Shown: positions 4,832-55,159, counted from the first letter of the stretch. The stretch is 64,000 nucleotides of DNA from Bacteriovoracaceae bacterium UBA3083 (GCA_002366565.1 DFBJ01000012.1:494950-558949), one strand, 5' to 3'. A program made the numbers and translations. The notes: a model not told the origin generated them from the sequence alone.

Positions 4832-4834
4832 GCC

Positions 4835-6541: not shown

Positions 6542-6585
6542 AACGAGTACTACTATTTATAATTCTCATTCAGGCCAAAGCAGTC

Positions 6586-7113: not shown

Positions 7114-7261
7114 AAGAATATAAACCAAGTAGTAGAAATCACTTAAAATGGCCATTTATATGGTCCTATATTGCATTTTTTTTTGACAGAGTTCCTCGAT
7201 GTTTGAAAAAATTTATACATAGAATCACGGATCGATTCTGAAAGATACCAAGGAAGGTAAA

Positions 7262-8095: not shown

Positions 8096-8096
8096 T

Positions 8097-18340: not shown

Positions 18341-18558
18341 AACATTACAATACTTATTTCGTCAGTTTCTTTAAATCACTTAACCATTTTAAGAGATAAA
18401 TGCGCTTAAATTGTAGTAAAGAAAAGTTAACGGAGGTAAAGATAAATATTTGCTATTTAAGTGTTAATGGGCTTTCAGGAGCTTATAAGAATAATAAGCT
18501 CCAATCATAAACAAAAGACATCTAATAAAATTTTAATATTTTTATTTTTTTGTGCAAC

Positions 18559-39201: not shown

Positions 39202-39861
39202 ATGGATAATGGCCAAATTATAGAGCAAGCTTTGTTAGATGAGCTACCTGCCTTTGAGAACTTTCTTAACAGGATTGGTTTTAAAAGAATAGAAGGTTCA
39301 GTTTATGGACTTCTTGTTCTATCTCCTAACCCATTAACAAGTGTCGAAATTGAAAATACATTACAACTCTCTCAACCTGCAGTTTCAAATGCATTGAAAG
39401 TACTCACGCACTACGGAGCAGTAATATCTAGAGATACTAAAAGAGAAGGTCTAGATCGTCGTATAAAAGTTCACAGCGTAAAAGAAGACAGTCTCTCAAT
39501 TGTAGCTAGCGTTTTTAGAAAAAGAGAACAAGAAACAATTCAAGACTTTAAGCAAATGGCGATTAGACTTGAGAAGATATCAAGGGACCTATCATCGGAG
39601 AATGACCCTAGAAATAAGAGACTCAAATCAATTGTATCAACATGTGAAATTGCAGAGAGTGTCATAAGCTTTGTTGTTGAATTAACAAAGAGCAAGCTTC
39701 CAGAAGAATATCCACAAGTAATTAAACAACTCCCAAGGACATTACAACTGCTAACAAGTGGAGTTGTTCCTATGGCGAATTTAACAGATCAAGTCAAGAA
39801 AAGTTTAACAAGTAAATTAAAAGGTGGTCTTGAGAGACTATCAGGAGAAGTGACAAAATGA
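39202..39861 (+). CDS. winged-helix transcriptional regulator (MarR/GbsR-like)
   Basis: 219 aa. It has a wHTH segment (…LTSVEIENTLQLSQPAVSNALKVLTHYGAVISRDTKREGLDRRIKVH…). It is the first gene of the operon, and its stop overlaps the KAS start. Confidence 0.55.
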   Translation: MDNGQIIEQALLDELPAFENFLNRIGFKRIEGSVYGLLVLSPNPLTSVEIENTLQLSQPAVSNALKVLTHYGAVISRDTKREGLDRRIKVHSVKEDSLSIVASVFRKREQETIQDFKQMAIRLEKISRDLSSENDPRNKRLKSIVSTCEIAESVISFVVELTKSKLPEEYPQVIKQLPRTLQLLTSGVVPMANLTDQVKKSLTSKLKGGLERLSGEVTK

Positions 39862-41087
39862 AGCATAGAATTGTCATCACAGGTATCGGGCTAACAGCTC
39901 CAAATGGAAATAACCTAGAAGAGTTCAGAACTGCCCTCCTTGAAGGTAAGTCTGGTATTACTCATACAGAAGTAAGGCACATGGGAATCAAGGCCGCAGG
40001 ACTTTGTGATTTCGATGAGTCTAAGTACCAGTCACGTAAGACGAGAAAGAGAGGAACGAGAGTTGGAGCAATATCTATCTATTGTGCTAATGAGTCGATT
40101 GTTAATTCAAAACTAGACTGGGAAAATATAGATAAAGACAGAGTTGGTGTCTATCTTGGAATCACTGAACACGGAAACGTAGAAACAGAAAATGAAATCC
40201 ATGATCTATATCAAAATGATCTAAATACAGAGTTTTGGTCTCATCATCACAACCCTAGAACTGTTGCAAATAACCCTGCTGGTGAAGTAACTCTGAATCT
40301 AAGTATTACAGGCCCGCACTACACTATTGGTGCCGCTTGTGCTGCTGGTAATTTAGGAATTATTCAAGCTTGTCAGATGCTTCAACTCGAAGAAGTAGAT
40401 GTTGCTCTTGCGGGTGGAGTAAGTGAGTCACCTCAAACTTTTGGAATATTTGCCGCATTTGCAGCTCAAGGTGCTCTAGGTGAACACGAAGACCCTACCC
40501 TAGCAACACGTCCATTGGATATCGATAGAAACGGTATTGTAATCTCTGAAGGCGGAGCTATTTATACTCTTGAAAGATTAGATGACGCAATTAAGAGAGA
40601 CGCAGATATTATAGCTGAAGTTGTAGGCTTCCATTCTAATAGTGATGCGAGTGATTTTGTTCTTCCTAATACGGAAAGACAAATTCAGTGTATGAACAAA
40701 GCAATAGAAAAAGCAGGATTAAAAGTAGATGACATAGACATCGTAAGTCTTCATGCTACTGGAACAAAAATGGGAGATATCCAAGAGTGTGAAGCTGTTA
40801 GCCAAGTTTTTGGTTATAGCGAGAATACACATATCAACTGTGCAAAAGGATTTATTGGCCATGCTATGGGTGCAGCAGGTGCTCTTGAGCTTGCAGGGAA
40901 CATTCCGAGCTTCAAAGATGGTTATATACACCCATGTAAAAAGATCGAAAATATTGACCCAAAGTGTGACCTAAAGAATTTAGTTAATGGAGAAAAAGTA
41001 GAGAAAGAAGTCAACTACATCCTTAACAACTCTTTTGGAATGCTTGGGATAAACTCATCATTAATAGTTAAAAAATATACCCATTAG
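39858..41087 (+). CDS. beta-ketoacyl-ACP synthase, elongating type (FabF/FabB-like KAS I/II)
   Basis: 409 aa. It has an active-site Cys in GPHYTIGAACAAGN and the two His of the C-H-H triad (LHATGTKMGD, GHAMGAAGALE), with an N-terminal RIVITGIG. Confidence 0.85.
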   Translation: MKHRIVITGIGLTAPNGNNLEEFRTALLEGKSGITHTEVRHMGIKAAGLCDFDESKYQSRKTRKRGTRVGAISIYCANESIVNSKLDWENIDKDRVGVYLGITEHGNVETENEIHDLYQNDLNTEFWSHHHNPRTVANNPAGEVTLNLSITGPHYTIGAACAAGNLGIIQACQMLQLEEVDVALAGGVSESPQTFGIFAAFAAQGALGEHEDPTLATRPLDIDRNGIVISEGGAIYTLERLDDAIKRDADIIAEVVGFHSNSDASDFVLPNTERQIQCMNKAIEKAGLKVDDIDIVSLHATGTKMGDIQECEAVSQVFGYSENTHINCAKGFIGHAMGAAGALELAGNIPSFKDGYIHPCKKIENIDPKCDLKNLVNGEKVEKEVNYILNNSFGMLGINSSLIVKKYTH

Positions 41088-41097
41088 GAGGATCACA

Positions 41098-41352
41098 ATG
41101 GAAAAAGAACTAGTAAGAGAACATGTACTAAATATTATTGCTGACGTTGCACTAGATGACGACGTTACAACAATTGACGATGCTGTAGCACTAAGAGACC
41201 AATTAGATCTAGACTCTATGGACTTCTTAGACATCGTAATGGAACTCAAGAAAAGACATAAGATTGAGGTTCCTCAAGAAGATTATCCACAATTAGCAAG
41301 CATGAATAGTTGTGTAGAATACCTAACACCAAAGTTTGCAGCACACGCATAA
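41098..41352 (+). CDS. acyl carrier protein (dedicated)
   Basis: 84 aa, acidic, with a phosphopantetheine-attachment motif LDLDSMDFLDIV. Confidence 0.8.
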   Translation: MEKELVREHVLNIIADVALDDDVTTIDDAVALRDQLDLDSMDFLDIVMELKKRHKIEVPQEDYPQLASMNSCVEYLTPKFAAHA

Positions 41353-41404
41353 TTGATTTAAAGGCCACTTTCATAGTGGCCTATTCTTTTAGGAAGATGT
41401 TTAG

Positions 41405-42784
41405 ATGGAAAAGTACGACGTTATAATAATTGGAGCAGGAATGAGTGGAATGGCAGCTGCCATACGACTTGCAATGTTCGATAAAAAAGTTCTACTCCTA
41501 GAAAAACATGTCATTACAGGTGGCCTAAATAGTTATTACAAAAGAGCAAAAAGAGACTTCGACGTCGGTCTACATGCTCTGACAAACTATATGGAAAAGG
41601 GAGAAAAAAGAAAGCCTCTCTCAAAGCTTTTAAAACAATTAAGAGTTCCATATGATGACTTAAAGCTTTCACCGCAAAGACATTCCAAAATACTTTTTCC
41701 AGAAAAGTCACTTACATTCACAAATGACTTGAATGACTTTGCTCAAGAGATAGCGGACAATTTTCCTGACCAAGTAGATGGATTTAATAAACTTGTATCT
41801 CACATCACAGATTTCAGTGAAACAGCATTAGATAATGAACATATTCTAGCAAAAGATGTTGTTAGAAAATATATAACCAATGAAGAATTACTAGAAATGA
41901 TATTTTGTCCCCTATTGATCTATGGATCAGCTTGGGAAAATGACATGGACTTCTCTCAATTTGTAATCATGTTCAAAAGTATTTACATCGAAGGTTTTTC
42001 AAGACCTGAAGGTGGAGTTAGGACGATTATAGATATCTTATTAAAGAAACTTGAAGCTTTAGGCCAAGAGATTCGCTTTAGAAGTGAAGTTCAAAGTATT
42101 GAAACAGCAAATGGGAAAGTTGCAGGTGTTAGATTAAAGAATGGGGACTTCTTACAAGCAGATAAAGTTATCTCAAGTATGGGTTATCCTGAAACACTTA
42201 GCGTAGTTAGCGGTATAGCCCCTAAACAAAAGCCAGCAGTTGGAAAAATGACTTTCTGTGAGAGTATTCTAGTCCTTGATAAGAAACCTAAAGACCTTGG
42301 ACTTGATAGCACGATTATTTTCTATAACGATAGACCAAAGTACTTATACCGAGAACCAAAAGAACTATACGACCCTAAGTCAGCAGTGATTTGTTTTCCA
42401 AATAACTTCACTCATGATGACTTTGATGAAGGTTGGGTTCGTATTACAAATATGGCAAACTTTGATCTTTGGAATAAATTAGAGAGACCAGAGTATAAAG
42501 AGAAGAAGGAAGAGGTTTTTAAAGATGCCTGTTCATTAACAAAGAAGTTAATACCTTCTTGGGACGAAGAAGTTGTCTTTAAAGATATCTTCTCACCTAC
42601 TACCATAAAGAAATACACAGGGCACTTTGGCGGTACAGTGTACGGATCAACAGATAAAAGTCGAGACGGTTCTACTGAAGTACCTGGACTTTACCTTTGT
42701 GGAACAGATCAAGGATTTCTTGGAATTGTTGGCTCTATGTTATCTGGGATATCAATGGCCAACCTATATGGATTAATGGATTAA
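41405..42784 (+). CDS. FAD-dependent oxidoreductase of the phytoene-desaturase (CrtI/CrtD/retinol-saturase-like) family
   Basis: 459 aa. It has an N-terminal Rossmann dinucleotide motif (YDVIIIGAGMSGMAAA…LLLEKHVITGGLNSYY) and a C-terminal GT…G motif. It is paralogous to 52465..53880. Confidence 0.7.
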   Translation: MEKYDVIIIGAGMSGMAAAIRLAMFDKKVLLLEKHVITGGLNSYYKRAKRDFDVGLHALTNYMEKGEKRKPLSKLLKQLRVPYDDLKLSPQRHSKILFPEKSLTFTNDLNDFAQEIADNFPDQVDGFNKLVSHITDFSETALDNEHILAKDVVRKYITNEELLEMIFCPLLIYGSAWENDMDFSQFVIMFKSIYIEGFSRPEGGVRTIIDILLKKLEALGQEIRFRSEVQSIETANGKVAGVRLKNGDFLQADKVISSMGYPETLSVVSGIAPKQKPAVGKMTFCESILVLDKKPKDLGLDSTIIFYNDRPKYLYREPKELYDPKSAVICFPNNFTHDDFDEGWVRITNMANFDLWNKLERPEYKEKKEEVFKDACSLTKKLIPSWDEEVVFKDIFSPTTIKKYTGHFGGTVYGSTDKSRDGSTEVPGLYLCGTDQGFLGIVGSMLSGISMANLYGLMD

Positions 42785-42788
42785 AAAT

Positions 42789-43820
42789 ATGAAATATGAA
42801 AATGTAGCAATACACAGTTTTGATTACCTAGAGCCTGATGAGTTTCTAACATCAGACGACATTGAATCAAAGCTCTCACCTGTATACAAAAGACTCAATC
42901 TTCCATCAGGAAGACTAGAACTTATGACAGGAATTAAATCAAGAGGAATTTGGCCAAATGGAACGAGACCAAGTGACTTGTCTACACAGTCAGCTCAAAA
43001 ACTCCTCTCTAAGTCCAATGTAGATAAATCAGAGATAGGCCTACTAATTCATGCAAGTGTTTGTAGAGATTTTTTAGAACCATCAACTGCATCAGTTGTT
43101 CACCACAATTTAGAATTAAATGAAGACGCCATGATTTATGATCTATCTAACGCATGCTTGGGTGTTGTAAACGCAATGTCTATGGCCGCGAATATGATTG
43201 AACTAGGTCAGATAAAGTATGCTTTAATAGTTTCTGGTGAGAATGGAGGACCTCTCTTAACTCAAACCATTGATCATTTGAACACAGATTCAACTCTAAC
43301 GAGAAAATCAATTAAAAAGTACATTGCAAACTTAACAATTGGTTCAGCTTCAGTAGCATACTTACTTTGCCATAAAGACTTAGCCCCTGATGCCCCAAGA
43401 ATAATAGGAGGCGCTGTCTGTACTGATTCAAGTGCAAATATTCTATGTCAAGGAGATGGAGACACGACTTCTTTAATGATGGAAACAGACTCGGAAGAGT
43501 TATTAAAGCACGGACTAGAACTAGCGAAGAAGAATTGGAATAAAACAAAAGAAGCACTTGGCTGGAATAACTCTGATGTTGATTGGGTCATTGGACATCA
43601 GGTAGGAACAGCTCATGAGACACTCACAATGAAGGCGATGGAATTAAGTCAGCACAAAACTTATACAACATATGAAACATTAGGAAATACTGGTTCTGCA
43701 GCATTACCTATTACACTAGCAAAATTAAAAGAAACAAATAAAATTCAAAAGGGTGAGAAAATTGCTCTATTAGGCATTGGAAGTGGTTTAACTTCTATTA
43801 TGTTAGGAGTTGAATGGTGA
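42789..43820 (+). CDS. oleA: OleA, FabH-like thiolase catalysing head-to-head (non-decarboxylative Claisen) condensation of acyl thioesters
   Basis: 343 aa. Blocks match the Xanthomonas-type OleA as I recall it: LEPSTASVV, DLSNACLGVVNAM (active Cys), YALIVSGENG, APRIIGGAVCTDS, DWVIGHQVGTAHE, and the C-terminal GEKIALLGIGSGLTSIMLGVEW. Gene order is oleA-B-C-D. Confidence 0.8.
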   Translation: MKYENVAIHSFDYLEPDEFLTSDDIESKLSPVYKRLNLPSGRLELMTGIKSRGIWPNGTRPSDLSTQSAQKLLSKSNVDKSEIGLLIHASVCRDFLEPSTASVVHHNLELNEDAMIYDLSNACLGVVNAMSMAANMIELGQIKYALIVSGENGGPLLTQTIDHLNTDSTLTRKSIKKYIANLTIGSASVAYLLCHKDLAPDAPRIIGGAVCTDSSANILCQGDGDTTSLMMETDSEELLKHGLELAKKNWNKTKEALGWNNSDVDWVIGHQVGTAHETLTMKAMELSQHKTYTTYETLGNTGSAALPITLAKLKETNKIQKGEKIALLGIGSGLTSIMLGVEW

Positions 43821-44692
43821 AAGCAATAACAATACCAAGTAATTTAAAATCAGAGTATCCATTTACTCCAAAAACACTCACTCTAAAGTCAGGTCACAAA
43901 TTATCATATATTGATGAAGGGACAGGACCCGTTGTAATTATGGCCCATGGAAACCCTACTTGGTCATTTTATTATAGAAATGTAATCAAGAAGCTAAAAA
44001 ATAACTTCCGAGTAATTGTTCCAGATCATATCGGTTGTGGCCTATCAGATAAACCACAAGATTATGATTACACACTTAAGAATCATATCGATAATCTTGA
44101 AGAGTTAACTCAATCATTAAATATTAAAGACTTTAATATTATTGTTCACGACTGGGGTGGAGCAATTGGTATGGGTCTAGCGACAAGATACCCTGAAAAC
44201 TTAAAAAAAGCAGTCATATTAAATACTGCTGCTTTTACTTCAGATCTAATTCCAAAAACAATTAATATTTGTAAAAATCCTATCTTTGGTGAATGGCTTG
44301 TCAGAAAGTTTAATGCTTTTGCATGGCCTGCAACATTTATGGCAACCAATGTGGGATTAAGTAAAGAAGCAAAGCAAGGCTACCTACTTCCATATAATAA
44401 CTATAAGAATAGAATTGCCACAGCAAGATTTGTAAAAGATATTCCCATGACAAGTACACATCCAACTTGGAATACTCTTAAAGATATTGAAAATAAACTT
44501 CAATCTCTAGATTGTCCAAAGCTTATCCTCTGGGGGGAGAAAGACTTTTGTTTCAATATGAACTTCTATAACCGATGGGTTGAAATTTTCCCAAAGGCTT
44601 CTAAGAAAGTATTTAAGAATGCTGGACACTATGTTCTTGAAGATGCCAGAGATGAAATCAACGAAGATATTTTAAACTTCCTAAGTGAGTAA
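43814..44692 (+). CDS. oleB: OleB, alpha/beta-hydrolase (haloalkane-dehalogenase-like) beta-lactone decarboxylase
   Basis: 292 aa. It has the HGNPTWSFYY motif (haloalkane dehalogenase/epoxide-hydrolase HGxP), a nucleophile elbow VHDWGGAIGM, and a C-terminal GHY. It overlaps oleA by 7 nt. Confidence 0.75.
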   Translation: MVKAITIPSNLKSEYPFTPKTLTLKSGHKLSYIDEGTGPVVIMAHGNPTWSFYYRNVIKKLKNNFRVIVPDHIGCGLSDKPQDYDYTLKNHIDNLEELTQSLNIKDFNIIVHDWGGAIGMGLATRYPENLKKAVILNTAAFTSDLIPKTINICKNPIFGEWLVRKFNAFAWPATFMATNVGLSKEAKQGYLLPYNNYKNRIATARFVKDIPMTSTHPTWNTLKDIENKLQSLDCPKLILWGEKDFCFNMNFYNRWVEIFPKASKKVFKNAGHYVLEDARDEINEDILNFLSE

Positions 44693-44694
44693 CT

Positions 44695-46326
44695 ATGAAT
44701 ATTGCAGACCTATTAGTTAAAAGAGCAAATGAACAACCAGATAAACTGGCAATAAAAGCTCCGATTAGTAGAAATGCGGATGGAAGTTATAATTATGAAA
44801 GTAAAACTTTCAAAGAACTTCTAGCAACTACAAGATCTATCGCTAACGGTCTTAAGTCTAAAGGATTAGTTAGTGGAGATAAAGCAGTTGTCTTTGTAAA
44901 GCCAGGACTAGATTTTCCTGCTATCACCTTCGCACTCTTTTCGTTAGGGATTGTCCCTGTATTCATTGACCCAGGAATGGGTAAAGAGAACCTATTAAGA
45001 TCAATCAAGCAAGTTCAACCTCAGGCCTTAATCGCAGTACCGATTGTGCATTTTCTCAGGTTATTTAAAAGGGATACTTTTAAGTCTGTTAAGTGCTTTA
45101 TTACAACAGGATCTTTAACATGGCCTGGAATGTTTTCACTCAAGTCATTAAAAAAACTTCCGCCTGCAGAAATACAAACTAAAGTAAATGAAAATGAATT
45201 AGCAGCAATACTCTTTACTTCAGGAGGAACTGGAATACCTAAGGGTGTTGAATATACTCATAAGATATTTTCAAAACAAACAGAACTACTTCAAAACATA
45301 TTTTCATTAACTAGTGAAGACATAGATATTCCAGGATTCCCTCTCTTTGCTCTTTTTACAATTGCTATGGGAATGACTAGTTGTATTCCAGACATGGATC
45401 CATCTAGACCAGCTGATGCTGACCCGGCCAAACTTGTCCAAAACATACTTGATAATCAAGCTACTTTTGTTGCAGGTTCTCCAGCGATTTGGGAAAAGGT
45501 AGCTTCATATTGTAACGATAAAAAAATAACATTACCAAGTGTTAAGTATCTTGTGATGTTTGGTGCACCAGTAAGAAAAGAAGTTCACCAAAATTTTTCA
45601 AAAGTACTAACTAATGGAACAACCTATACTCCATACGGAGCAACAGAATCACTACCTGTAGCAAATATTTCAGGAAAGTACTTACTTGAAAAAACAGTTG
45701 ATCTATCTTCTAAGGGACGTGGGACATGTGTAGGGAAACCTATATCATCAATGGAAGTAAAAATAATTTCAATTACTGATGAAATACTCTCTACAGTAGA
45801 AGAAATGAAAGAGCTTAGAAATGGTCAGATTGGAGAAATTATTGTTCAAGGAGACACTGTTACTAAAAGTTATTTTGGTATGCCTGAAAAAACCGCTGAA
45901 GCTAAAATATTTGATGGAGATAAATTCTGGCACAGGATTGGAGATATAGGCTACCTAGATGATCAAGGGTATCTATGGTTCTGCGGAAGAAAGACTCATA
46001 GAGTGGAAACTGAAAATGAACTAATGAGTTCAATACAATGCGAATCAATATTTAATGAGCACCAGCTTATTGAAAAGACTGCCCTAGTTGGTGTCTATAG
46101 AGGCAAGAAATATCAAACTCCTGAATTAGTAGTTCAACTAAAAGATCCATCTAAGAAAAGTGCACAATTGAAAGAAGAACTAATAAGCATGGCAAGTACT
46201 CACCCTCATACAAAGAATATAAAGAAAATCTGGTACCACGATAAGTTCCCTGTAGATGTACGTCACAATATTAAAATTGATCGTCTAAAACTTCGGGATC
46301 TTGCTGAGAACGGAGATCTAACATGA
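44695..46326 (+). CDS. oleC: OleC, AMP-dependent synthetase/ligase (beta-lactone synthetase)
   Basis: 543 aa. It has the adenylation core motif FTSGGTGIPKGVEYTH and further ANL-superfamily motifs (YGATE, GDIGYLDDQGYLWFCGRKT). It starts 2 nt after oleB. Confidence 0.8.
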   Translation: MNIADLLVKRANEQPDKLAIKAPISRNADGSYNYESKTFKELLATTRSIANGLKSKGLVSGDKAVVFVKPGLDFPAITFALFSLGIVPVFIDPGMGKENLLRSIKQVQPQALIAVPIVHFLRLFKRDTFKSVKCFITTGSLTWPGMFSLKSLKKLPPAEIQTKVNENELAAILFTSGGTGIPKGVEYTHKIFSKQTELLQNIFSLTSEDIDIPGFPLFALFTIAMGMTSCIPDMDPSRPADADPAKLVQNILDNQATFVAGSPAIWEKVASYCNDKKITLPSVKYLVMFGAPVRKEVHQNFSKVLTNGTTYTPYGATESLPVANISGKYLLEKTVDLSSKGRGTCVGKPISSMEVKIISITDEILSTVEEMKELRNGQIGEIIVQGDTVTKSYFGMPEKTAEAKIFDGDKFWHRIGDIGYLDDQGYLWFCGRKTHRVETENELMSSIQCESIFNEHQLIEKTALVGVYRGKKYQTPELVVQLKDPSKKSAQLKEELISMASTHPHTKNIKKIWYHDKFPVDVRHNIKIDRLKLRDLAENGDLT

Positions 46327-47300
46327 AAATATTAGTTACAGGTGCTGGTGGATTTCTTGGTTACTATATTGCTAGAGATTTAAAGGCTCTAGGCCATGAA
46401 GTATATAATTTTTCTAGATCTCATCATAAAGACCTAGATGAACTGGCCATTACAACTAGACTTGGAAACTTAAACGACCCAGACTCAATCGACAAAGCAC
46501 TCGATAAAATAGAAGCCGTTTTTCATGTTGCTGGCAAAGTAGCGATGTGGGGAAAATGGGAAGACTTCTATCAAACCAATACTATTGGAACAAAAAATCT
46601 AGTAGATGCGTGCCTAAAAAAAGGTATACAAAAATTCATTTACACATCAACACCTAGTGTTGTCTTTGGAAGTGGAGATATAGAAAATGGTGATGAAACA
46701 CTAGAGTACCCAAATGAATTTCTTAGCCTCTATGCTAAATCGAAAATGTTAGCAGAGAAATATGTACTTCAGAAAAACTCTAAAGAGTTTCTAACATGTG
46801 CAATAAGACCACATCTTATTTTTGGTCCTAGAGATAAGAATATTATTCCAAGACTACTTGAGGCAGCTAAAAAAGAGAAATTAAAGAAAATAGGAAGCGG
46901 TAATAATCTAGTTGATATTATTTATGTAGAAAATGCGGCCAAAGCACATATTCAGGCATTTCAAAGTATTACACCAGACTCTCCTATTTCGGGATCACCT
47001 TACTTCATAGGACAAGAAGCTCCTGTTAATCTATGGGACTTTATCAACAAAATTCTTAAGGCCCATGGTCAAAAAACTGTATCAAAAAGTATTTCTGTTA
47101 AATCTGCTTATTCAATAGGAGCTGTAATAGAATTTATATTAAAGTTTCTTAGAGTCTGGAACGTTCATCCACCCATGACAAGATTTGTCGCTCTTCAATT
47201 AGGGAAGAGTCATTACTTTTCTCATAAGAAAGCAAAAAATGACTTTGACTATAGTCCAGACATAACTATAGATGAGGCAATTTCAAGAATCACTCCATAG
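46323..47300 (+). CDS. oleD: OleD, NAD(P)-dependent 3beta-hydroxysteroid-dehydrogenase/epimerase-family reductase (2-alkyl-3-ketoacid reductase)
   Basis: 325 aa. It has an N-terminal Rossmann motif (MKILVTGAGGFLGYYIARDL) and an SDR-extended YxxxK (YAKSK). It overlaps the oleC stop (ATGA). Confidence 0.75.
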   Translation: MKILVTGAGGFLGYYIARDLKALGHEVYNFSRSHHKDLDELAITTRLGNLNDPDSIDKALDKIEAVFHVAGKVAMWGKWEDFYQTNTIGTKNLVDACLKKGIQKFIYTSTPSVVFGSGDIENGDETLEYPNEFLSLYAKSKMLAEKYVLQKNSKEFLTCAIRPHLIFGPRDKNIIPRLLEAAKKEKLKKIGSGNNLVDIIYVENAAKAHIQAFQSITPDSPISGSPYFIGQEAPVNLWDFINKILKAHGQKTVSKSISVKSAYSIGAVIEFILKFLRVWNVHPPMTRFVALQLGKSHYFSHKKAKNDFDYSPDITIDEAISRITP

Positions 47301-49407
47301 AGGCGGGACTTCTTAGATTGTTGTCTCGTCTGAAATTATCAACAATACCTAGCCCATCAAAACGACCTTCATTAAAGTATGTGATAAATGGTGAACCTTC
47401 ATTCGTATAAGCTTCGAAGTTTCCATAATAATAAACATTGTCATAACCAAAGAAAGAAAGAATTTGTGTCTTATTCTTATGTTCTAAATAAATAGTTTGA
47501 ATAATATCTTTCAGTCTCCATAGAGGAACAGCGGCCATATCTTGTGCAACTGATTTCTTAGAATATTCCTCCATACACTTTCTTCTCTTACGGCTTCGTT
47601 TAAAAAAGCTATATTTCTTAGTTTTATTTTTGCAGTAAGTATAGAGGCTTGCAGTAAAGTCATTAAATGCCCACTCAGCGTAGAACTTATTTGAAGAAAC
47701 TTTCATTTCTCTAAGACAACTATTAAAAAGATTTCTAAACCACTTAAAAAAACCACTCTTCTTAGCTCCACACATACTCTCATAACGAGATTTCATCTCT
47801 GACTGCGAGTACCCTAATAAATGATATAGGCCATCCCTATTAATTTTATAGTCACCATTAATCTTAACAGGTCCAATCAATTGGTCTTGTTCAAAAAGTT
47901 TTATCGCTAAGGGATCAACCCCTGAGTAATTATTAAGAACTTCAAGTGCTGCATTCTTATGAGACTTCTTTGTTACTGTATTTGTTTTGGCCGTATAAAA
48001 ATTATGAGAGAATCCGATAGAAACAGATTCTTCTTTTTTCATATCTATATCACCCTCATTAGCAATGAGGTTCTCATTAGCAGAATACTCAACAATCACT
48101 TTCTTAGAGTCACTACTATCTTTATTAATTATAGAATCTAACTTTAAAAGAGATTTAACTAAGACAGCAACAAGTCTTGAAAAGACATTTTGCTTATATT
48201 TTATTTTTTCAAAGTAATGCTTGAAAAATCTATGAACATTCCCATCTTTAACAATTTCTATTTGTTGAGTACTTGCCTCTTTTTGGCCTCCCCAAAATAA
48301 AAGGCCATACTTAGATTCTTTTTGCTCAGATTTTCTCTGTTCTAAAGAGACGATATTATCTCGAAGAGCATATACATCTGACTTTTGCCCATTAAGTATT
48401 CTTTCAACCTGTTGGGAGTAGTAAGTATCTTTCTTAAGTTTCTCAAAGTCTTCTTCATAAAAAGTTAAATACGTTTTTTCAGAATCCTCAAGAGTGTAAT
48501 TGAAATCATATTTAAGCAATGTCATTTGTAATAATTTTAAGAACTCTATCCCAACGCTTGCTGAAACGCCGACACTAGCAGACTTAACTTTTTCCATAGT
48601 TATACGAAGTCGTTCTTTCTCAGTAGATTTCTCTTCATCATGTATTGCTTGAATATCCACACGTGCTAAATTTTCATAACTAGCTAGAACGCCAGCACTT
48701 CCAAATATTGGCCCATAGATAGGTGCTCCAGCGATAGCACCTGCTTTTAGAGATATTGCATCTTCTTTTTGAAGAAATTCATACTCATTTAAATTTAAAT
48801 ATTCTTTATTAGAGAATTTAGTGAAGGCCAGAAATAACTTATCAAAGTTGAGAGTTAAACCTTCCATATAGCTATTAGCGAAGTGAACTGACCTAAAAGT
48901 TCTCCTAAATGAGATTCCTGCGAAAGCAGCATATTGCGCTTCAGAGAAATCAACTATGCCCTGATCCTTTAGGTTAGTTAATAAATTTGCGGCATTGATA
49001 TCAATAATAAATTCATCTGAAACAATCCACTTATCATCACTAAATAAATCTGGAGCAACAGTTCTTCCAGCAATTACTGTAAAATCAAGAAAGTCGTGAT
49101 TGTACTTAATCCCGATATTATTAAGGCCACCAAATACTGTAGTATTCTGACTACTGAGAACGTTAGCGGCCTGCCTCTGCCCTATAGAGTCATAGGTCGT
49201 AGAGAATTCATTAAGAATACTTCGATAAAGAGCATTATCACTTGAGAGCTCGTAACCAGAACTCTTCAAGCCGATAGAATAGTCTCCATATAGAGAATGG
49301 AGCTTTTCTTCATCTAAAATTTGAAAATGTTCGAATTTCTCACCAGCTAATACTTTAGTGGATAGATATAAGACCACACTTATAAGAACATAATGCACCA
49401 ATTTCAT
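47290..49407 (-). CDS. large secreted hypothetical protein (start placed at MKLVHYV… signal peptide)
   Basis: The ORF runs to 49476, but a signal peptide begins at the internal Met (MKLVHYVLISVVLYLSTKVLAG). No recognisable catalytic motifs. Its 3' end overlaps the oleD 3' end convergently by 11 nt. Confidence 0.45.
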   Translation of the reverse strand: MKLVHYVLISVVLYLSTKVLAGEKFEHFQILDEEKLHSLYGDYSIGLKSSGYELSSDNALYRSILNEFSTTYDSIGQRQAANVLSSQNTTVFGGLNNIGIKYNHDFLDFTVIAGRTVAPDLFSDDKWIVSDEFIIDINAANLLTNLKDQGIVDFSEAQYAAFAGISFRRTFRSVHFANSYMEGLTLNFDKLFLAFTKFSNKEYLNLNEYEFLQKEDAISLKAGAIAGAPIYGPIFGSAGVLASYENLARVDIQAIHDEEKSTEKERLRITMEKVKSASVGVSASVGIEFLKLLQMTLLKYDFNYTLEDSEKTYLTFYEEDFEKLKKDTYYSQQVERILNGQKSDVYALRDNIVSLEQRKSEQKESKYGLLFWGGQKEASTQQIEIVKDGNVHRFFKHYFEKIKYKQNVFSRLVAVLVKSLLKLDSIINKDSSDSKKVIVEYSANENLIANEGDIDMKKEESVSIGFSHNFYTAKTNTVTKKSHKNAALEVLNNYSGVDPLAIKLFEQDQLIGPVKINGDYKINRDGLYHLLGYSQSEMKSRYESMCGAKKSGFFKWFRNLFNSCLREMKVSSNKFYAEWAFNDFTASLYTYCKNKTKKYSFFKRSRKRRKCMEEYSKKSVAQDMAAVPLWRLKDIIQTIYLEHKNKTQILSFFGYDNVYYYGNFEAYTNEGSPFITYFNEGRFDGLGIVDNFRRDNNLRSPASME

Positions 49408-49720
49408 CTCACTACCTTTAACAGAAATCGTGGGACTGATGATTAGTGATCTTACGTGCAGTTTAACAATCAGCAATTCTTGAATTCTATCACAGACTTT
49501 TCGGTAAGCTCAATTGTTGACTTAATAGATAAGATACTCAAAATGAGAAAATCCTACGTTTTAAACTATTTACACAATTGTCTGCTAAAATAATGAATAA
49601 GAATTCAGAGACTTACGTGATAGAAATTATCTATCGAAACTTAAATAAAACCGATTTTATATATATTGCCAATTCGAGTAACCTATTCAAAGAAACAAAC
49701 GCAAACCTTAGGAGGCGAAA

Positions 49721-50452
49721 ATGAGTTTTGAAAACAAAGAAGGACAGAACGTTCCATCAGCATCATTCAAAGTTATAAATGAAAAAGGACTACAGAGTGT
49801 AGATTCAGATAGCTTATTCAAAAATAGAAAAGTTATTGTCTTCTCACTACCAGGTGCTTTTACACCAACTTGTTCATCAACACACTTACCAAGATATAAC
49901 CAACTAGCAAAAACTTTTGCTAAAGAAGGAGTTGATGAAATAGTTTGTCTTTCAGTTAACGATGCATTCGTTATGAAGTCTTGGGGAGAAAGCCAAGAAG
50001 CAGATAAAGTAACTCTACTTGCAGATGGTAATGGTGAGTTTACTGAAAAAATGGGATTACTAGTTGATAAGTCAGACTTAGGTTTTGGAAAAAGATCATG
50101 GCGTTATTCAATGTTAGTTAATAACGGTGTTATTGAAAAGATGTTCATTGAGCCAGATAAGCCAGGTGACCCATTTGAAGTAAGTGATGCAAATACGATG
50201 TTAGATTACATCAATAAAGATGCAAAACTACCACATGCGATTACAGTTATTACAAAACCAGGTTGTTCTTACTGCAAAAAAGCAAAAGAATTACTTGCGA
50301 GTAAAGAGTTAGATTTTGAAGAAATTATTCTTGGAAAGGACGCTACAAGTGTATCACTTGCTGCTCTTTCTGGATCAGGAAAAGTTCCTCAAGTATTCAT
50401 CGATGGTAATAGAATTGGTGGAAGTGAAGAGCTAGAAAAATACTTCGCTTAA
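49721..50452 (+). CDS. hybrid peroxiredoxin-glutaredoxin (Prx5-type peroxiredoxin fused to Grx)
   Basis: 243 aa. The N-terminal domain has the Prx5 motif PGAFTPTCS. The C-terminal domain has the glutaredoxin CxxC (KPGCSYCKKAKELL) and GG motif. A strong RBS (aggagg) is present. Confidence 0.8.
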   Translation: MSFENKEGQNVPSASFKVINEKGLQSVDSDSLFKNRKVIVFSLPGAFTPTCSSTHLPRYNQLAKTFAKEGVDEIVCLSVNDAFVMKSWGESQEADKVTLLADGNGEFTEKMGLLVDKSDLGFGKRSWRYSMLVNNGVIEKMFIEPDKPGDPFEVSDANTMLDYINKDAKLPHAITVITKPGCSYCKKAKELLASKELDFEEIILGKDATSVSLAALSGSGKVPQVFIDGNRIGGSEELEKYFA

Positions 50453-50462
50453 GATTTAGACC

Positions 50463-50492
50463 CTCGCCTTTACAGGCGAGGTTTTCTTTTAG
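50463..50492 (+). terminator. rho-independent terminator of Prx-Grx gene
   Basis: The hairpin is cctcgcc-tttacag-ggcgagg followed by ttttctttt. The U-tract overlaps the stop codon of the convergent fabI-like gene. Confidence 0.6.
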
Positions 50493-51283
50493 AGATTATC
50501 AGCAACAGTATTAACCACATCACTATCAAAATGATTGCAGCTCATGCCAGCATCTACCTTTATCCCAGTAGCATTTATTCCACTAGAAAGAGGGCTTAGT
50601 AAAAAAGCTATAGTATTTGCAACTTCTACTGTTTTTAAATTTTCTTTTCTTAAAGTTAATTTTTCTGCAAATAAGTAGTTATTTATATAACCTGGAATTC
50701 CAGCAGAAGCAGAAGTTTTAAGTGGCCCAGAACAAACCGCATTACATCTGACTCTTGATTTTAAACTAAGAGACTTTGCAAGGTATGCTACAGTTGCATC
50801 TAATGTTGCCTTTATAGGTCCCATATATCCATAGCTTGTTGCTCTAGTATCTGAAATAGATACTGTTACAATAGATGCATTTTCATCAAATGACGATGAA
50901 AGGGCATTTGATAGAGACACTAATGAGAATGAAGAGATATTTGTTGCTTGAAGGTAGTCAGCAAGTTTAGTTTCATGAAATGGTTTGATCCCTTCAGAAT
51001 AATTCGCAAAAGCAATTGAGTGAAGAAAGCCATTAATCTTTACACCTAGTTCACTAATACTTTTTCCAAAATCTTCAATGGCCTGAGAATCCTCAACATC
51101 AAGAATATATATTTGAGATTCGGGAAATAGTTTTTGAACTTTCTCTTTATGATCAGGAGATTGAACTGTGAAAATTAAATTAGATCCTGCATCACTAAGT
51201 ATTTTTGCACTGTGATAGGCAACACTCTTTCTATTTGCAACTCCTGAAATAACAAAAGTTTTATTTTTAAATCCAAAATCCAT
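50489..51283 (-). CDS. fabI: enoyl-[ACP] reductase, FabI-type (NADH)
   Basis: 264 aa. The N-terminal VISGVANRKSVAYHSAKIL resembles E. coli VTGVASKLSIAYGIAQAM. The catalytic Tyr/Lys segment YGYMGPIKATLDA resembles YNVMGLAKASLEA. Confidence 0.8.
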   Translation of the reverse strand: MDFGFKNKTFVISGVANRKSVAYHSAKILSDAGSNLIFTVQSPDHKEKVQKLFPESQIYILDVEDSQAIEDFGKSISELGVKINGFLHSIAFANYSEGIKPFHETKLADYLQATNISSFSLVSLSNALSSSFDENASIVTVSISDTRATSYGYMGPIKATLDATVAYLAKSLSLKSRVRCNAVCSGPLKTSASAGIPGYINNYLFAEKLTLRKENLKTVEVANTIAFLLSPLSSGINATGIKVDAGMSCNHFDSDVVNTVADNL

Positions 51284-51708
51284 TATTTTTCCTCAATTAA
51301 AGCGCAGCTAAACTCAATGGCCATAACAACTTTACCATTAACTGTAGAGCGAGCTTTCATATAGTACGCATTTGAAATTTGATCTATTAATGAAACATCC
51401 ATGATGAGTTCATCACCAGGTTTTACAAAATTTTTAAATTTTGCACTATTAACTTTAGTAACAACACCAAGCCCACTTCCTTCCATTGTCGCCATTAGTA
51501 GTGCTCCAGACTGAAAAGATGCTTCTTGCAGTAAAACACCTGGCATAATAGGATTTCCAGGAAAATGTCCTTTGAAGAAATCTTCATCACCAGTTAAAGT
51601 TAATGATGTCTTTATTGAACCTTCGCCTCTTTCAATAACTTTATCAACAAAGAGAAATGGAGGTTTTTGCGGTAAAAGCTCTAGTACTTCATTTGAAAAT
51701 TTACTCAT
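51283..51708 (-). CDS. 3-hydroxyacyl-ACP dehydratase, FabZ/FabA-like hot-dog
   Basis: 141 aa. It has the GHFPGNPIMPGVLLQEASFQ motif (catalytic His…Glu of FabZ). Its start overlaps the FabG stop. Confidence 0.75.
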   Translation of the reverse strand: MSKFSNEVLELLPQKPPFLFVDKVIERGEGSIKTSLTLTGDEDFFKGHFPGNPIMPGVLLQEASFQSGALLMATMEGSGLGVVTKVNSAKFKNFVKPGDELIMDVSLIDQISNAYYMKARSTVNGKVVMAIEFSCALIEEK

Positions 51709-52454
51709 TACAGTCCACCAGTTATTTCTAAAGAAGTCCCTGTAATATAACCTGCATGCTCACTACTAAGAAATAAAACAGCGTTGGCCACTTCTTCAAC
51801 TTTACCAAATCTTCTTAAAGGAACTTGTTTTTTATATTCCTTAACTTGATCCGCTGGTAGATCTGCAATCAACTCTGTCTCTATGAACCCAGGACAGATA
51901 TTATTTACTGTTATTCCTTTTTTACCAACTTCCTTTGAGAGTGATTTAGAGAGTGCTACTTGACCTGCTTTTGAAGCTGCGTAATTTGCTTGACCTGAAA
52001 GTCCAAGAGCTCCACCTACTGAACTCATATTTACAACTCTACCGTAACGATTCTTCATCATTAAAGGTATAGACATTTTAGTCATTAGGAATGTTCCTTT
52101 TAAGTTTACATCCATAACACTATTCCAATCTTCTGTTGGCATAAGAGCTAAGACATTATCCTTTCTAATTCCAGAGTTATTAACAAGGATATCAACTTTT
52201 TGATATTCTGATTCAACATAGCTGTAAAACTCTTGAACTTGCTCTTCTTTTGAAACATCAAACTTACGAAGGTCAATATTCTTTCCAAGTTCTCCAAGAG
52301 ACTCCTTAAAGTTATTTGCTGCTTCATCATTAGAAGTATATGTAGCAATTACAGTTGCACCATGCTCAAGAAAAGCTGTAGTCACACCTCTTCCAATACC
52401 TCTTGTTCCACCTGTTACGATTACGACTCTATTTTCAAAATTAAAATTCATCAT
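51708..52454 (-). CDS. 3-oxoacyl-ACP reductase (FabG-type SDR)
   Basis: 248 aa. It has TGGTRGIGRG, NNSG, and the catalytic S…YAASKAG motif (YxxxK). Confidence 0.8.
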   Translation of the reverse strand: MMNFNFENRVVIVTGGTRGIGRGVTTAFLEHGATVIATYTSNDEAANNFKESLGELGKNIDLRKFDVSKEEQVQEFYSYVESEYQKVDILVNNSGIRKDNVLALMPTEDWNSVMDVNLKGTFLMTKMSIPLMMKNRYGRVVNMSSVGGALGLSGQANYAASKAGQVALSKSLSKEVGKKGITVNNICPGFIETELIADLPADQVKEYKKQVPLRRFGKVEEVANAVLFLSSEHAGYITGTSLEITGGL

Positions 52455-52464
52455 TATTTATCAC

Positions 52465-53880
52465 CTATTTAGAAAGAAACGTTTCTACTTCATGGGACTG
52501 AATTATCCCGTAATTTGCAGCACCAAGCCACCCTGACATTATTATCCCTACTGAACCGGAGTGAAAAAGCCCTTCTACCTGCTTATGCATCTCCATACTT
52601 ATAGGGAGCCCTTCAAACTTTGTTCCAAAGCTTGCACCTTTATTGTGATGTGTATACTTCTCAACAGTGAGAGGAGTTGAGCAATCAATGTAGTCTATTT
52701 TATCTCGTACTCCTGGAATAATTTTCTCTAGAGTTACAAGAGCTCTCTCGATCGTAAATTGCTTTTTTTCTAGATACTCTTCCTTAGATAGGTTAACCCA
52801 ATCTTCATAACGAGCATTACTAGATGAGACAACAGCATACCTTCCATCTCTATCCTCTCTCATCTCAGGATAATAAACAGAGAAAGTCTGACTTCCTACC
52901 TTTGGCGAAAGAATCAAATCAGTATTAAAGTCTTTGTCATCAGAATAGAAAACAAGCTCACCAATGTCTGGTATAGACTCACCTTTCTTAATTCCCATAA
53001 AGACTTGGCAACTTGAAGTGTTTAATCTAACTTTCTTTGCTTTCTCTACATAAGTCGGATCAAAATTCTCTTCCCCAGCTAACTTAAAAACTGTACTTAA
53101 GAGATTAGAATTAGAAAGAACAGATTTTGCCTTTATTAACTTTCCACCAAGAGTAACGCCTTGAACTTTTTTATTCTCAACAACAATTTCATCAACTTTT
53201 GAATGAAGCTTTATATCGACTCCATTTTTAACAAGCTCATCTTTCATCATCGAAATAAGCTTATCAGTACCACCTTGGAATATATAAACACCTTTGCTCA
53301 TAAAATTTGAGAAAACGATCCCATAAGTAATCGCAGGATCTTCAAGGGTAGAACCATTTGCATAAACAATTGGCTCCATCAGAAATCTGTGTACATCATT
53401 TCGACCAGGAAAGAACTTTTCAAAGAGCTCTCTATTAGTCATACCACTATCGTCATAAAAATTCATGGCAGCGAGATAATCAAAGAACCCGACAACAACG
53501 TCTTTTTCTAGATTAAAAGTCTCTGTTAATGTTTTTATATAATGATCTTTAGTGAAATCTGTTTCAATATTAAACTGAGGATTAGAGAATTTAACACTTT
53601 TAACTTGAACTATTCGACTAGCAATTTCTTTTGACCAATACTTTCTACATGTCTTAATCATTCCGACAGGAAATCCATGAAGAGAAACATCAAAGATATG
53701 ATCTCCGGCCTGCCTCTTAAACCAAGTAGCAAAACCACCAAGCTTATTATGTGATTCAAGAAGTAGAACACTTCTTCCATTACGAGCTAATTTATTTGCG
53801 GCAGTCATCCCTGCAAGGCCTGAACCAACAATAATAACTTCGTAATCTTTTGTAATTTGATCTTTCTTTTTGAGTAGCAT
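52465..53880 (-). CDS. FAD-dependent oxidoreductase, phytoene-desaturase-like (paralog of 41405..42784)
   Basis: 471 aa. The N-terminal YEVIIVGSGLAGMTAANKL…LLLESHNKLGG aligns with the paralog, and a C-terminal FAD motif is present. Confidence 0.7.
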   Translation of the reverse strand: MLLKKKDQITKDYEVIIVGSGLAGMTAANKLARNGRSVLLLESHNKLGGFATWFKRQAGDHIFDVSLHGFPVGMIKTCRKYWSKEIASRIVQVKSVKFSNPQFNIETDFTKDHYIKTLTETFNLEKDVVVGFFDYLAAMNFYDDSGMTNRELFEKFFPGRNDVHRFLMEPIVYANGSTLEDPAITYGIVFSNFMSKGVYIFQGGTDKLISMMKDELVKNGVDIKLHSKVDEIVVENKKVQGVTLGGKLIKAKSVLSNSNLLSTVFKLAGEENFDPTYVEKAKKVRLNTSSCQVFMGIKKGESIPDIGELVFYSDDKDFNTDLILSPKVGSQTFSVYYPEMREDRDGRYAVVSSSNARYEDWVNLSKEEYLEKKQFTIERALVTLEKIIPGVRDKIDYIDCSTPLTVEKYTHHNKGASFGTKFEGLPISMEMHKQVEGLFHSGSVGIIMSGWLGAANYGIIQSHEVETFLSK

Positions 53881-53992: not shown

Positions 53993-55159
53993 TTAAGGAG
54001 TCACTCTCAGCACAGCAGTACCAAGTACCTCATCCTTATATTTTGTATAAATCTTAGCCTGCAGTACAATTTCATCATCACTATTAAGAGTGATTCCACC
54101 ACCAAAGGCAGGTCCATTTGCAGAGTGAATAACCGCTGTAGATTGGTCTGTATTGATTAATTCACCCTCTGTTAAGACTTCTTTAAAAATAAAACCATCA
54201 TAAAAGAAGATTGCTCGTTTTTGACTAGCATTAATTGCTCTAAACGCAACATTCCCTTTCTCATTTACTGAAGGTGAAAAATACTCAAGATTTGATATTC
54301 CACCTTGTCCTTCTGTTGCAATAACTTGGTACTGATCACCTATCTGACGAACAAGTACTCGAACTCCACTTTTTAATGTTGCAATAAAAGCAATATACTT
54401 AGAGTTAAAGTGACTACCTATAGAATTGTTAAATTGAGAAAAAATAGAATCTTCACTTAAGTCATGATCAGAATTTAAACGAACAAAGCCACCATTTTTA
54501 TCATATAGACGAATTGAATCTGGCTGAGACTCAGAAAGTGAACTGCCTTCTCTAACTTTTAAAACAATATTATTTCCATCAAAGAAAGAGGCTCCAAATA
54601 GGTATGCAATCTCAGGGTCTTTATTTGTAGCAATTGTATTTAGCTCCTTGTTCTTCAAGGTTATTATTGCCTTTTCACCAGTCTTAAAGCTTACTCTAAA
54701 AAGAATTGTCCCAGAGTTATTAACTTCTGGATCACGAAGAGATGAGAACATTGATGTTTCTTCACTATTTAACACCTTCTCTAAAGTGTTCTTTTTATTT
54801 TTGTATAAATAAAGTGCTTCTACGCTCATTTCATCAAAGACAGAAAAAATGACATCTCCTTTTTCATTTATAAAAGGATCGCTTATATACTTACCTACTT
54901 CAGATAAGTAAATTGTAGTTCCATCTGGATAATGATCATTCTTTAGCCATAGTCCCATTTTAACTTCTTCTTCAACAACAGTTGAAAAGTTAAAAGCAAT
55001 AGAACCTCTACTATTATTTTTTATTGTTGAGTTGAGTACAAAACTTGCGTCAGGCATATTAAACGAACCATAGTTATGTGCACGTGCAACAAGGTCAACG
55101 TTTGAAGCAAGTAAACTTGCTGAAAAGAGTAATGGGATTAAGAATTTAATTAAAATCAT
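53993..55159 (-). CDS. secreted/periplasmic hypothetical protein (beta-rich, repeated strand motifs)
   Basis: 388 aa with a signal peptide (LIPLLFSASLLASN). It is translationally coupled to the upstream RND gene (ATGA overlap). Confidence 0.45.
   Translation of the reverse strand: MILIKFLIPLLFSASLLASNVDLVARAHNYGSFNMPDASFVLNSTIKNNSRGSIAFNFSTVVEEEVKMGLWLKNDHYPDGTTIYLSEVGKYISDPFINEKGDVIFSVFDEMSVEALYLYKNKKNTLEKVLNSEETSMFSSLRDPEVNNSGTILFRVSFKTGEKAIITLKNKELNTIATNKDPEIAYLFGASFFDGNNIVLKVREGSSLSESQPDSIRLYDKNGGFVRLNSDHDLSEDSIFSQFNNSIGSHFNSKYIAFIATLKSGVRVLVRQIGDQYQVIATEGQGGISNLEYFSPSVNEKGNVAFRAINASQKRAIFFYDGFIFKEVLTEGELINTDQSTAVIHSANGPAFGGGITLNSDDEIVLQAKIYTKYKDEVLGTAVLRVTP

Follow-up and report, generated by a model that had tools for sequence, protein, structure and literature searches.

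Why should two related flavoenzymes of the phytoene-desaturase family lie on either side of a set of olefin biosynthesis (ole) genes? The question arises at positions 41,405 to 53,880 of a 64,000-nucleotide (nt) stretch of DNA from Bacteriovoracaceae bacterium UBA3083 (GCA_002366565.1 DFBJ01000012.1:494950-558949; this whole stretch is referred to here as the window), where oleABCD is found between two flavoprotein genes, here called Flavo1 and Flavo2. A preliminary description had taken their products for duplicate tailoring enzymes that carry out two redox modifications of the Ole hydrocarbon. We found instead that the two flavoenzymes belong together as a pair that has been split in the window and that conservation attaches to this pair rather than to the ole operon. 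The pair is the anciently duplicated center of a seven-gene module that resembles a type II fatty acid synthase (FAS) and occurs in multiple phyla. Judging from gene context, we give a probability of roughly 0.5 to the reading that the pair carries out double-bond chemistry on acyl chains that are bound to the module and supplied to OleA.

Three arrangements of one seven-gene set

One genome per GTDB species was scanned with an alignment of Flavo1. At least 576 of the at least 600 pattern matches listed encode Flavo1 relatives, and the best 80 were inspected. At each locus, all window proteins were searched by tblastn and the flanking open reading frames (ORFs) were clustered, within 10 kb on either side. 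All 80 loci, which represent at least five phyla, have FAS-type neighbors. Their Flavo1 orthologs are 49 to 62% identical to the window protein (78% for one Halobacteriovorax sequence), and the Flavo2 orthologs of the 27 compact-type loci described next are 51 to 65% identical.

The compact arrangement is a single operon encoding a ketosynthase (KS), an acyl carrier protein (ACP), the two flavoenzymes, a ketoreductase (KR), a dehydratase (DH), and an enoyl reductase (ER), in the order KS-ACP-Flavo1-Flavo2-FabG-FabZ-FabI. It was found in Nitrospinota (n = 14), Chloroflexota/Dehalococcoidia (n = 10), Planctomycetota (n = 1), and unclassified genomes (n = 2). Flavo2 lies directly 3' of Flavo1 in all of these loci (27/27), and the complete seven-gene order was present in at least 17 of the 27, with the remainder cut by contig ends. 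The compact-type pair is always beside FabG/FabZ/FabI-like genes and, wherever upstream sequence is present, beside KS and ACP genes as well. Where at least 6 kb of downstream sequence was available, neither OleB nor OleC was found (0/10 Nitrospinota and 0/4 Chloroflexota loci).

The second arrangement carries the ole genes inside the module. Five loci from Smithella/deltaproteobacterial metagenome-assembled genomes (MAGs) read KS-ACP-Flavo1-OleA-OleB-OleC-OleD-Flavo2-FabG-FabZ-FabI on one strand, and one more locus has OleA alone inserted. The third, split arrangement is that of the Bacteriovoracaceae. OleA follows Flavo1 in every evaluable locus of this family (42/42), and in all loci with a sufficiently long flank, the Flavo2-FabG-FabZ-FabI half is inverted and sits a few kilobases beyond oleD. 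Bacteriovorax stolpii, Bacteriovorax sp. PP10, and several MAGs share the layout of the window, including the ACP gene and a protein of about 700 amino acids (aa). The paralogs thus appear to flank the ole genes because one half of the module was inverted and moved by a few kilobases in the Bacteriovoracaceae. The association with Ole that was first described holds in these two lineages, whereas, within the 10-kb flanks, consistent co-occurrence with oleBCD fails in Nitrospinota and Chloroflexota.

Pairwise identities of Flavo1 and of Flavo2 across 30 genomes correlate closely (r = 0.96; 0/999 Mantel permutations as high); thus, the two genes are co-inherited. The Smithella Flavo1 clade is nearest to that of the Bacteriovoracaceae, and a homolog search with a Smithella-type Flavo1 returned, among the matches listed, only Smithella/Syntrophaceae and Bacteriovoracaceae relatives. 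The Ole-containing version may have had a single origin or been transferred, and the sequences are consistent with either.

Chloroflexota provide a further link to OleA. In 7 of 8 evaluable loci, KS is preceded by an OleA-type thiolase that is a full member of PRK09258 (456 bits) and has the EP(S/A)TA and NACLG motifs in common with OleA. The Chloroflexota versions also have an Sfp-type phosphopantetheinyl transferase (PPTase) gene after FabI and a neighboring gene for a WS/DGAT-like acyltransferase, with no OleBCD nearby (in locus L064: thiolase, 7196..8245; PPTase, 15017..15586; acyltransferase, 17023..18438). Two further loci (L057 and L072) have a second thiolase-KS(-ACP) set. These three Chloroflexota proteins are the only seemingly relevant extra neighbors of the non-Ole loci, in which the other conserved neighbors are mostly housekeeping genes (IspF, Dxr, CdsA, UppS, MobB, and an exonuclease). 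In three Nitrospinota loci (L071, L079, and L082), a block of housekeeping genes (rpsB-frr-uppS-cdsA-dxr-ispF) lies upstream of KS, which places the module in a core chromosomal region beside lipid and isoprenoid precursor genes.

The window has a G+C content of about 35%, and in a homolog search its proteins matched those of Halobacteriovorax with complete or almost complete identity. It contains all seven module genes as well as oleABCD:

39858..41087 (+): KS, a dedicated FabF-like ketosynthase with ketoacyl-synt N and C domains and Cys161/His299/His335 motifs
41098..41352 (+): dedicated ACP of 84 aa, with Ser40 in a DSMD motif
41405..42784 (+): Flavo1, a CrtI/CrtISO-superfamily flavin adenine dinucleotide (FAD) enzyme of 459 aa, whose gene runs in the direction of oleA and ends 4 nt upstream of it
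42789..43820 (+): OleA thiolase (PRK09258, 428 bits; cutoff, 285) with Cys123, Glu97, His270, and Asn300 motifs
43814..44692 (+): OleB, an alpha/beta hydrolase of the beta-lactone decarboxylase type (Abhydrolase_1; HDWGG motif)
44695..46326 (+): OleC beta-lactone synthetase (PRK09274, 617 bits; cutoff, 478)
46323..47300 (+): OleD 2-alkyl-3-oxoalkanoate reductase (3Beta_HSD Pfam domain)
50489..51283 (-): FabI-like enoyl reductase with a Tyr151-x6-Lys158 motif; the final module gene in 44 loci
51283..51708 (-): FabZ/ApeI-like 3-hydroxyacyl dehydratase with His48 and Glu62; orthologs have FabA/ApeI-like Pfam domains
51708..52454 (-): FabG-like ketoreductase with a Ser-Tyr158-Lys162 motif
52465..53880 (-): Flavo2, a CrtI/CrtISO-superfamily FAD enzyme of 471 aa, leading the Flavo2-FabG-FabZ-FabI operon

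The genes of the minus-strand operon are separated by 10, -1, and -1 nt. The coordinates and lengths first given for the two flavoproteins are exact, although the minus strand of Flavo2 had gone unstated and the ACP gene was too short to have been listed. That the flavoproteins flank the ole genes is accurate only in a loose sense: Flavo1 is 4 nt from oleA, and Flavo2 lies 5.2 kb past oleD on the opposite strand with five genes between (encoding a 728-aa protein, a peroxiredoxin-glutaredoxin fusion, and the FabI-like, FabZ-like, and FabG-like enzymes).

All five FAS functions (KS, ACP, KR, DH, and ER) are present with intact catalytic motifs and are conserved as a gene set, as in a type II FAS. 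The proteins nevertheless score below the equivalog cutoffs of the housekeeping FAS II families. KS (fabF TIGR03150, 292 bits; cutoff, 494), ACP (41 bits; cutoffs, 66 to 71), and the FabI-like protein (at most 166 bits to FabI equivalogs; cutoff, 370) fall well short, while the FabG-like protein (TIGR01830, 290 bits; cutoff, 298) and the FabZ-like protein (111.7 bits; cutoff, 113) are barely under. KS orthologs (59 to 91% identity) occupy the same position in 71 loci; the ACP gene was likewise found in 71 loci, and a PP-binding gene is at the equivalent place in B. stolpii. Judged by these scores, the module proteins are divergent paralogs of housekeeping FAS proteins and form a dedicated module rather than a housekeeping one.

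At the sequence level, a contiguous oleABCD set is also confirmed in the window. Beyond the matches above, the top NCBIfam match of OleB is haloalkane dehalogenase (168 bits, under the cutoff), OleC scores 500 and 481 bits to olefin beta-lactone synthetase equivalogs (under their cutoffs), and the top matches of OleD are OleD equivalogs (333 and 330 bits; cutoff, 580). For OleA from Halobacteriovorax marinus, activity has been reported in vivo (PMC7064751).

A scan for promoters and terminators yielded fewer promoter-like sites than shuffled sequence (40 versus 56) and one clear hairpin, which is G+C rich with a T-run (41362..41382) and lies after the ACP gene, just before Flavo1. This hairpin could act as an attenuator, so that KS/ACP transcript would exceed downstream transcript.

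The remaining genes of the region are as follows:

35558..37597 (+): PaaZ-like protein in which an aldehyde dehydrogenase is fused to a MaoC dehydratase domain, encoded 1.6 kb before the regulator gene
39202..39861 (+): MarR/TrmB-like helix-turn-helix (HTH) regulator with weak Pfam TrmB/MarR_2 matches
47290..49476 (-): unclassified protein of 728 aa with a TTG start, between oleD and the inverted module half
49721..50452 (+): peroxiredoxin-glutaredoxin (Prx-Grx) fusion, between oleD and Flavo2
53993..55159 (-): MXAN_5453/DUF7453-like repeat protein, directly upstream of Flavo2
55156..58275 (-): RND permease, overlapping the repeat-protein gene by 4 nt
59121..59789 (-): S-adenosylmethionine (SAM) methyltransferase of 222 aa, beside an MscS-type channel gene

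The HTH regulator gene overlaps the start of KS by 4 nt. It was found upstream of KS in 22 loci, exclusively in Bacteriovoracaceae versions of the cluster. The 728-aa protein has no Pfam or NCBIfam match; in 13 Bacteriovoracaceae loci (34 to 63% identity), its gene lies close to oleD and is oriented opposite to it. Its membership in the system is uncertain; it may serve hydrocarbon formation, with a role such as handling or localization. The repeat protein is likewise adjacent to Flavo2 in Bacteriovorax sp. PP10 (L004). The place of the permease gene is not conserved in other loci, and conservation of the PaaZ-MaoC fusion with the cluster does not extend to B. stolpii. The methyltransferase has weak similarity to cyclopropane/mycolic-acid synthases (CMAS, 26.5 bits; cutoff, 27).

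Family and fold of the two flavoproteins

Flavo1 and Flavo2 align end to end by BLASTP (27% identity over 486 columns; E value, 8e-33). Profiles built from the two ortholog sets align with a probability of 99.9% (E value, 7.6e-33; 30% identity over 403 columns). Thus, the paralogy, at first noticed in a shared N-terminal block, spans the full length of both proteins. Each has the FAD-binding GxGxxG motif (GAGMSG, G10 to G15, in Flavo1 and GSGLAG, G19 to G24, in Flavo2).

The sole family model exceeded by either protein is Pfam PF01593 (Amino_oxidase; cutoff, 19.8 bits), a superfamily that includes CrtI and phytoene desaturase (PDS); Flavo1 scores 60.2 bits over residues 13 to 452 and Flavo2 scores 53.9 bits over residues 22 to 372. 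The top NCBIfam match of both is carotenoid isomerase (carot_isom, TIGR02730; 124 and 107 bits for Flavo1 and Flavo2, respectively; cutoff, 587), and both also match CrtD (TIGR02733; 62 and 96 bits; cutoff, 550) and crtI_fam (TIGR02734; 57 and 74 bits; cutoff, 238). These scores are 4 to 10 times under the curated cutoffs, yet the carotenoid families remain the best scoring. HpnE gave weak matches (39 to 43 bits). No amine-oxidase or protoporphyrinogen-oxidase (PPOX) family was among the 25 top NCBIfam matches listed for either protein.

Structural comparisons gave the same ranking. In a PDB sequence search, only the CrtI-type entries 4rep and 4dgk matched outside the Rossmann block, to which the amine-oxidase matches were confined. 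AlphaFold (AF2) models were obtained with mean confidence (predicted local distance difference test, pLDDT) of 85 for Flavo1 and 82 for Flavo2. The top Foldseek match of both was 4rep, with a template modeling (TM) score of 0.75 (E values, 8e-23 for Flavo1 and 4e-24 for Flavo2). Flavo1 then matched CrtI 4dgk; for Flavo2, the next-highest TM score was that of plant PDS 5mog (0.72), and 4dgk ranked 35th by E value. Amine oxidases, GDI, and PPOX gave lower TM scores than CrtI-type enzymes, to which the structural alignments show 13 to 19% identity.

Taken together, these data place both flavoproteins on the CrtI/PDS side of the amine-oxidase superfamily, and by their scores neither is a member of any characterized carotenoid equivalog. 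The CrtI/CrtD-type class assigned in the preliminary description is therefore upheld by the ranking of hidden Markov model (HMM) matches, by PDB sequence matches, and by fold. An amine-oxidase or PPOX identity, which would have spoken against that assignment, was rejected, since such matches were restricted to the Rossmann block or ranked under CrtI-type structures.

The homologs listed for the window proteins, mostly from Bacteriovoracaceae, are at least 60% (Flavo1) and at least 67% (Flavo2) identical and carry database names of the type "phytoene dehydrogenase/desaturase family," a misleading annotation for these proteins. The wider family (40 to 49% identity) reaches Phycisphaerae, Lentisphaeria, and Auribacterota; 235 clusters at 50% identity were counted in it (E values below 1e-30).

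Proposed double-bond chemistry and the competing explanations

We infer the substrate, the chemistry, the reason for having two enzymes, and the fate of the product from the gene neighborhood. Because the constant partners of the pair are a dedicated KS, ACP, KR, DH, and ER, action on acyl chains made by the module is favored over action on a finished hydrocarbon. In the favored reading, KS, KR, DH, and ER would assemble an acyl chain on the dedicated ACP, and the two CrtI/CrtISO-like FAD enzymes would act on the tethered chain, with enoyl or allylic intermediates as likely targets. Carbon-carbon double bonds would be introduced or repositioned by flavin-dependent dehydrogenation and/or isomerization, without O2-dependent membrane desaturases. 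The two paralogs would have been retained because two different double-bond operations are needed. In Halobacteriovorax, the module product is the probable substrate of OleA, since oleABCD is inserted exactly between the members of the pair and three lineages have an OleA-type thiolase together with the module. The unsaturated acyl product would be passed to the adjacent OleA, and OleD, OleC, and OleB would then yield a long-chain olefin that is probably multiply unsaturated.

Several points weigh against this reading. The assignments of substrate (ACP-, CoA-, or lipid-bound, or free), reaction (desaturase, isomerase, or saturase), and product are drawn from context, and the module's own enoyl reductase makes a largely saturated product possible. 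Neither unusual unsaturated lipids nor olefins are known to us from Halobacteriovorax, Nitrospina, or Dehalococcoidia, although the literature was not searched exhaustively on this point, and no lipid data on the organisms in question were found. The flanks covered 10 kb on each side of a locus, so that OleBCD could sit elsewhere in genomes counted here as non-Ole, and a correlation of r = 0.96 is also expected of any two vertically co-inherited genes. Finally, the anammox proteins kuste3336 and kuste3607, for which a comparable role has been proposed, show only 24 to 28% identity to Flavo1 and Flavo2.

A bolder form of the same idea sees in the pair the missing core enzymes of a dissociated "type II polyunsaturated fatty acid (PUFA) synthase" that would need no O2. 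The two flavoenzymes would set double bonds at even and odd positions of ACP-bound intermediates, in the role that FabA-like isomerase domains have in Pfa synthases, and in Ole lineages (Halobacteriovorax, Bacteriovorax, and Smithella) the chains would become polyunsaturated hydrocarbons similar to the C31:8 and C31:9 compounds of Desulfotalea. We regard this form as possible but rather unlikely.

Among the alternatives to acyl-chain chemistry in the service of OleA, the one that survives best assigns the module a housekeeping role, as another way of making ordinary monounsaturated fatty acids. It would replace FabA/FabB, with one or both flavoenzymes serving as a redox-neutral enoyl isomerase like CrtISO, and proximity to ole would reflect shared lipid metabolism. 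The top HMM match of both proteins, carotenoid isomerase, is in keeping with this explanation, as are the very high conservation across phyla (50 to 65%), the placement of the Nitrospinota module after the rpsB-to-ispF block, and a dehydratase that is of the FabZ type (His/Glu) rather than the FabA type. A replacement for FabA/FabB would, however, hardly need its own ACP, KR, DH, and ER (and PPTase in Chloroflexota), and both the oleABCD genes inside the Smithella operon and the OleA-type thiolase of Chloroflexota point to a dedicated product stream. We consider a housekeeping role distinctly unlikely.

The preliminary proposal, in which the pair tailors the finished Ole hydrocarbon through two desaturation or saturation steps on a long-chain olefin, draws on the adjacency of Flavo1 and oleA, on the position of the ole genes between the two flavoenzyme genes in Smithella-type loci, and on the affinity of the CrtI family for long lipophilic hydrocarbons, the nearest structures being carotene desaturases. 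It does not account for the 27 loci of other phyla in which the pair is adjacent and accompanied by FAS genes, with no OleB or OleC where enough downstream sequence was present. Within the flanks, the constant partners are the five FAS functions, not OleBCD, and canonical ole clusters (Xanthomonas, Shewanella, and Micrococcus) are not known to have such flavoenzyme genes. Tailoring by duplicate enzymes is thus probably wrong, and we hold it to be improbable as an explanation of the pair.

We give equally little credence to a reductive pair, in which a saturase or dehydroxylase similar to RetSat or HpnE would remove double bonds or hydroxyls from a polyene-like intermediate made by the KS, KR, and ApeI-like DH. 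The superfamily does include saturases and HpnE, with the weak matches described above, and the dehydratase orthologs have ApeI-like Pfam matches typical of polyene-forming systems. The module already has its own FabI-like reductase, in which the Y-x6-K motif is intact, though, and it lacks the internal KS/chain-length factor (CLF) pair of aryl-polyene systems; similarity to HpnE/RetSat-type enzymes is also weaker than that to CrtISO and CrtD. That the pair are genuine carotenoid/isoprenoid enzymes, or amine or protoporphyrinogen oxidases, situated near lipid genes by chance is scarcely credible: Amino_oxidase is indeed the only family above its cutoff and the database names speak of phytoene, but every carotenoid equivalog cutoff is missed by a wide margin, amine-oxidase matches cover the Rossmann block only, no carotenoid or heme gene was seen among the approximately 30 annotated neighbors in the window, the FAS-type context is invariant across at least five phyla, and related anammox proteins did not replace CrtI (PMC4790861).

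Known bacterial routes to double bonds comprise FabA/FabB isomerization, O2-dependent membrane desaturases, Pfa megasynthases, and the special cases FabM, FabN, FabX, and UfaD. If the favored reading is correct, a conserved CrtI-like pair working with a dedicated KS/ACP/KR/DH/ER set would add another route to this list, one that is possibly independent of O2 and is present in at least five phyla. A hypothesis of 2009, that phytoene-desaturase-like enzymes carry out anaerobic fatty acid desaturation, becomes testable in a compact seven-gene system; were the type II PUFA synthase form true, the module would give direct experimental access to it. Hosts of the module, including B. stolpii, Halobacteriovorax, and Nitrospina, are culturable. 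The module also suggests a source of precursors for the Ole pathway of predatory bacteria and syntrophs.

Comparison with known systems

Full-text literature searches found no published description of the seven-gene module. CrtI, CrtD, and CrtISO resemble the pair in their N-terminal FAD Rossmann block and their three-domain fold; they act on long lipophilic chains. In contrast to these enzymes, the pair has FAS-type enzymes and an ACP as partners rather than crtB and crtE; thus, its substrate is probably a straight acyl chain, possibly tethered to a protein.

UfaD, of the furan fatty acid pathway of Rhodobacter sphaeroides, proves that the phytoene-desaturase superfamily can work on fatty acids. 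This enzyme, phytoene-desaturase-like by its authors' family description, desaturates a fatty acyl chain beside an existing double bond; its substrate is phospholipid-bound 11Me-12t-18:1, and O2 is required in vivo (PMC7380195). While UfaD is partnered with a methylase and an oxygenase, the pair belongs to a KS/ACP/KR/DH/ER set.

The nearest published idea is a proposal, that of "phytoene-desaturase-like fatty acid desaturases" in the FAS II clusters of anammox bacteria and Desulfotalea. Rattray et al. (2009) suggested that CrtI-like genes in such clusters of Kuenenia and Desulfotalea (kuste3336, kuste3607, DP1860, and DP2405/DP2406) encode anaerobic fatty acid desaturases (PMC2649909), which would feed the formation of polyunsaturated hydrocarbons or ladderanes (PMC2649909, PMC4790861). 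Desulfotalea psychrophila makes C31:8 and C31:9 hydrocarbons, and the authors report no Pfa-type pathway in its genome (PMC2649909); Desulfotalea is also absent from a survey of Pfa-like clusters (PMC3098273). In the work of Javidpour et al. (2016), neither kuste3336 nor kuste3607 could substitute for CrtI, and no function could be assigned to them (PMC4790861).

Like the module, these clusters place CrtI-like flavoenzymes among fabF/acp/fabZ/fabG paralogs, and DP2405/DP2406 are likewise in tandem. They differ in having radical SAM and methylase genes and in lacking FabI; the cluster in the window has no radical SAM gene. Orthology of the pair to kuste3336/kuste3607 was rejected, as the identity of 24 to 28%, calculated with the truncated kuste sequences of S6 Table in PMC4790861, is little closer than that to Pantoea CrtI. 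The pair's family is thus a separate branch, and its gene set is different, simpler, and far more widespread.

A partial parallel to the anammox/Desulfotalea clusters may be seen in the Smithella loci and in L083. A few kilobases upstream of the Smithella modules are a B12-binding radical SAM gene, 29 to 30% identical to kuste3608 (E value, 1e-43), and a pair encoding a KS and a Cys-less, CLF-like KS (L021, 1172..2434 [-]; L027, 19..1287 [-] and 4828..7339 [-]). Two radical SAM genes lie downstream in L083 (14598..16229 and 18139..19161). A kuste3608-like gene was found near the Smithella and L083 versions only.

On the Ole side, the canonical OleABCD systems of Xanthomonas and Micrococcus have the same four enzymes in the same order as the window. 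Canonical ole clusters take their substrates from the housekeeping fatty acid pool and are not known to lie beside KS, ACP, or flavoenzyme genes. For an Ole product to be a polyene, its acyl precursors must already be polyunsaturated. Shewanella offers the closer analogy, in that a secondary synthase for unsaturated chains (Pfa) supplies OleA and the ole genes are often linked to that synthase (PMC6463001, PMC3098273). Whereas Pfa is a type I multidomain enzyme that forms cis bonds through FabA-like DH/isomerase domains, the module is a dissociated type II system with two flavoenzymes instead.

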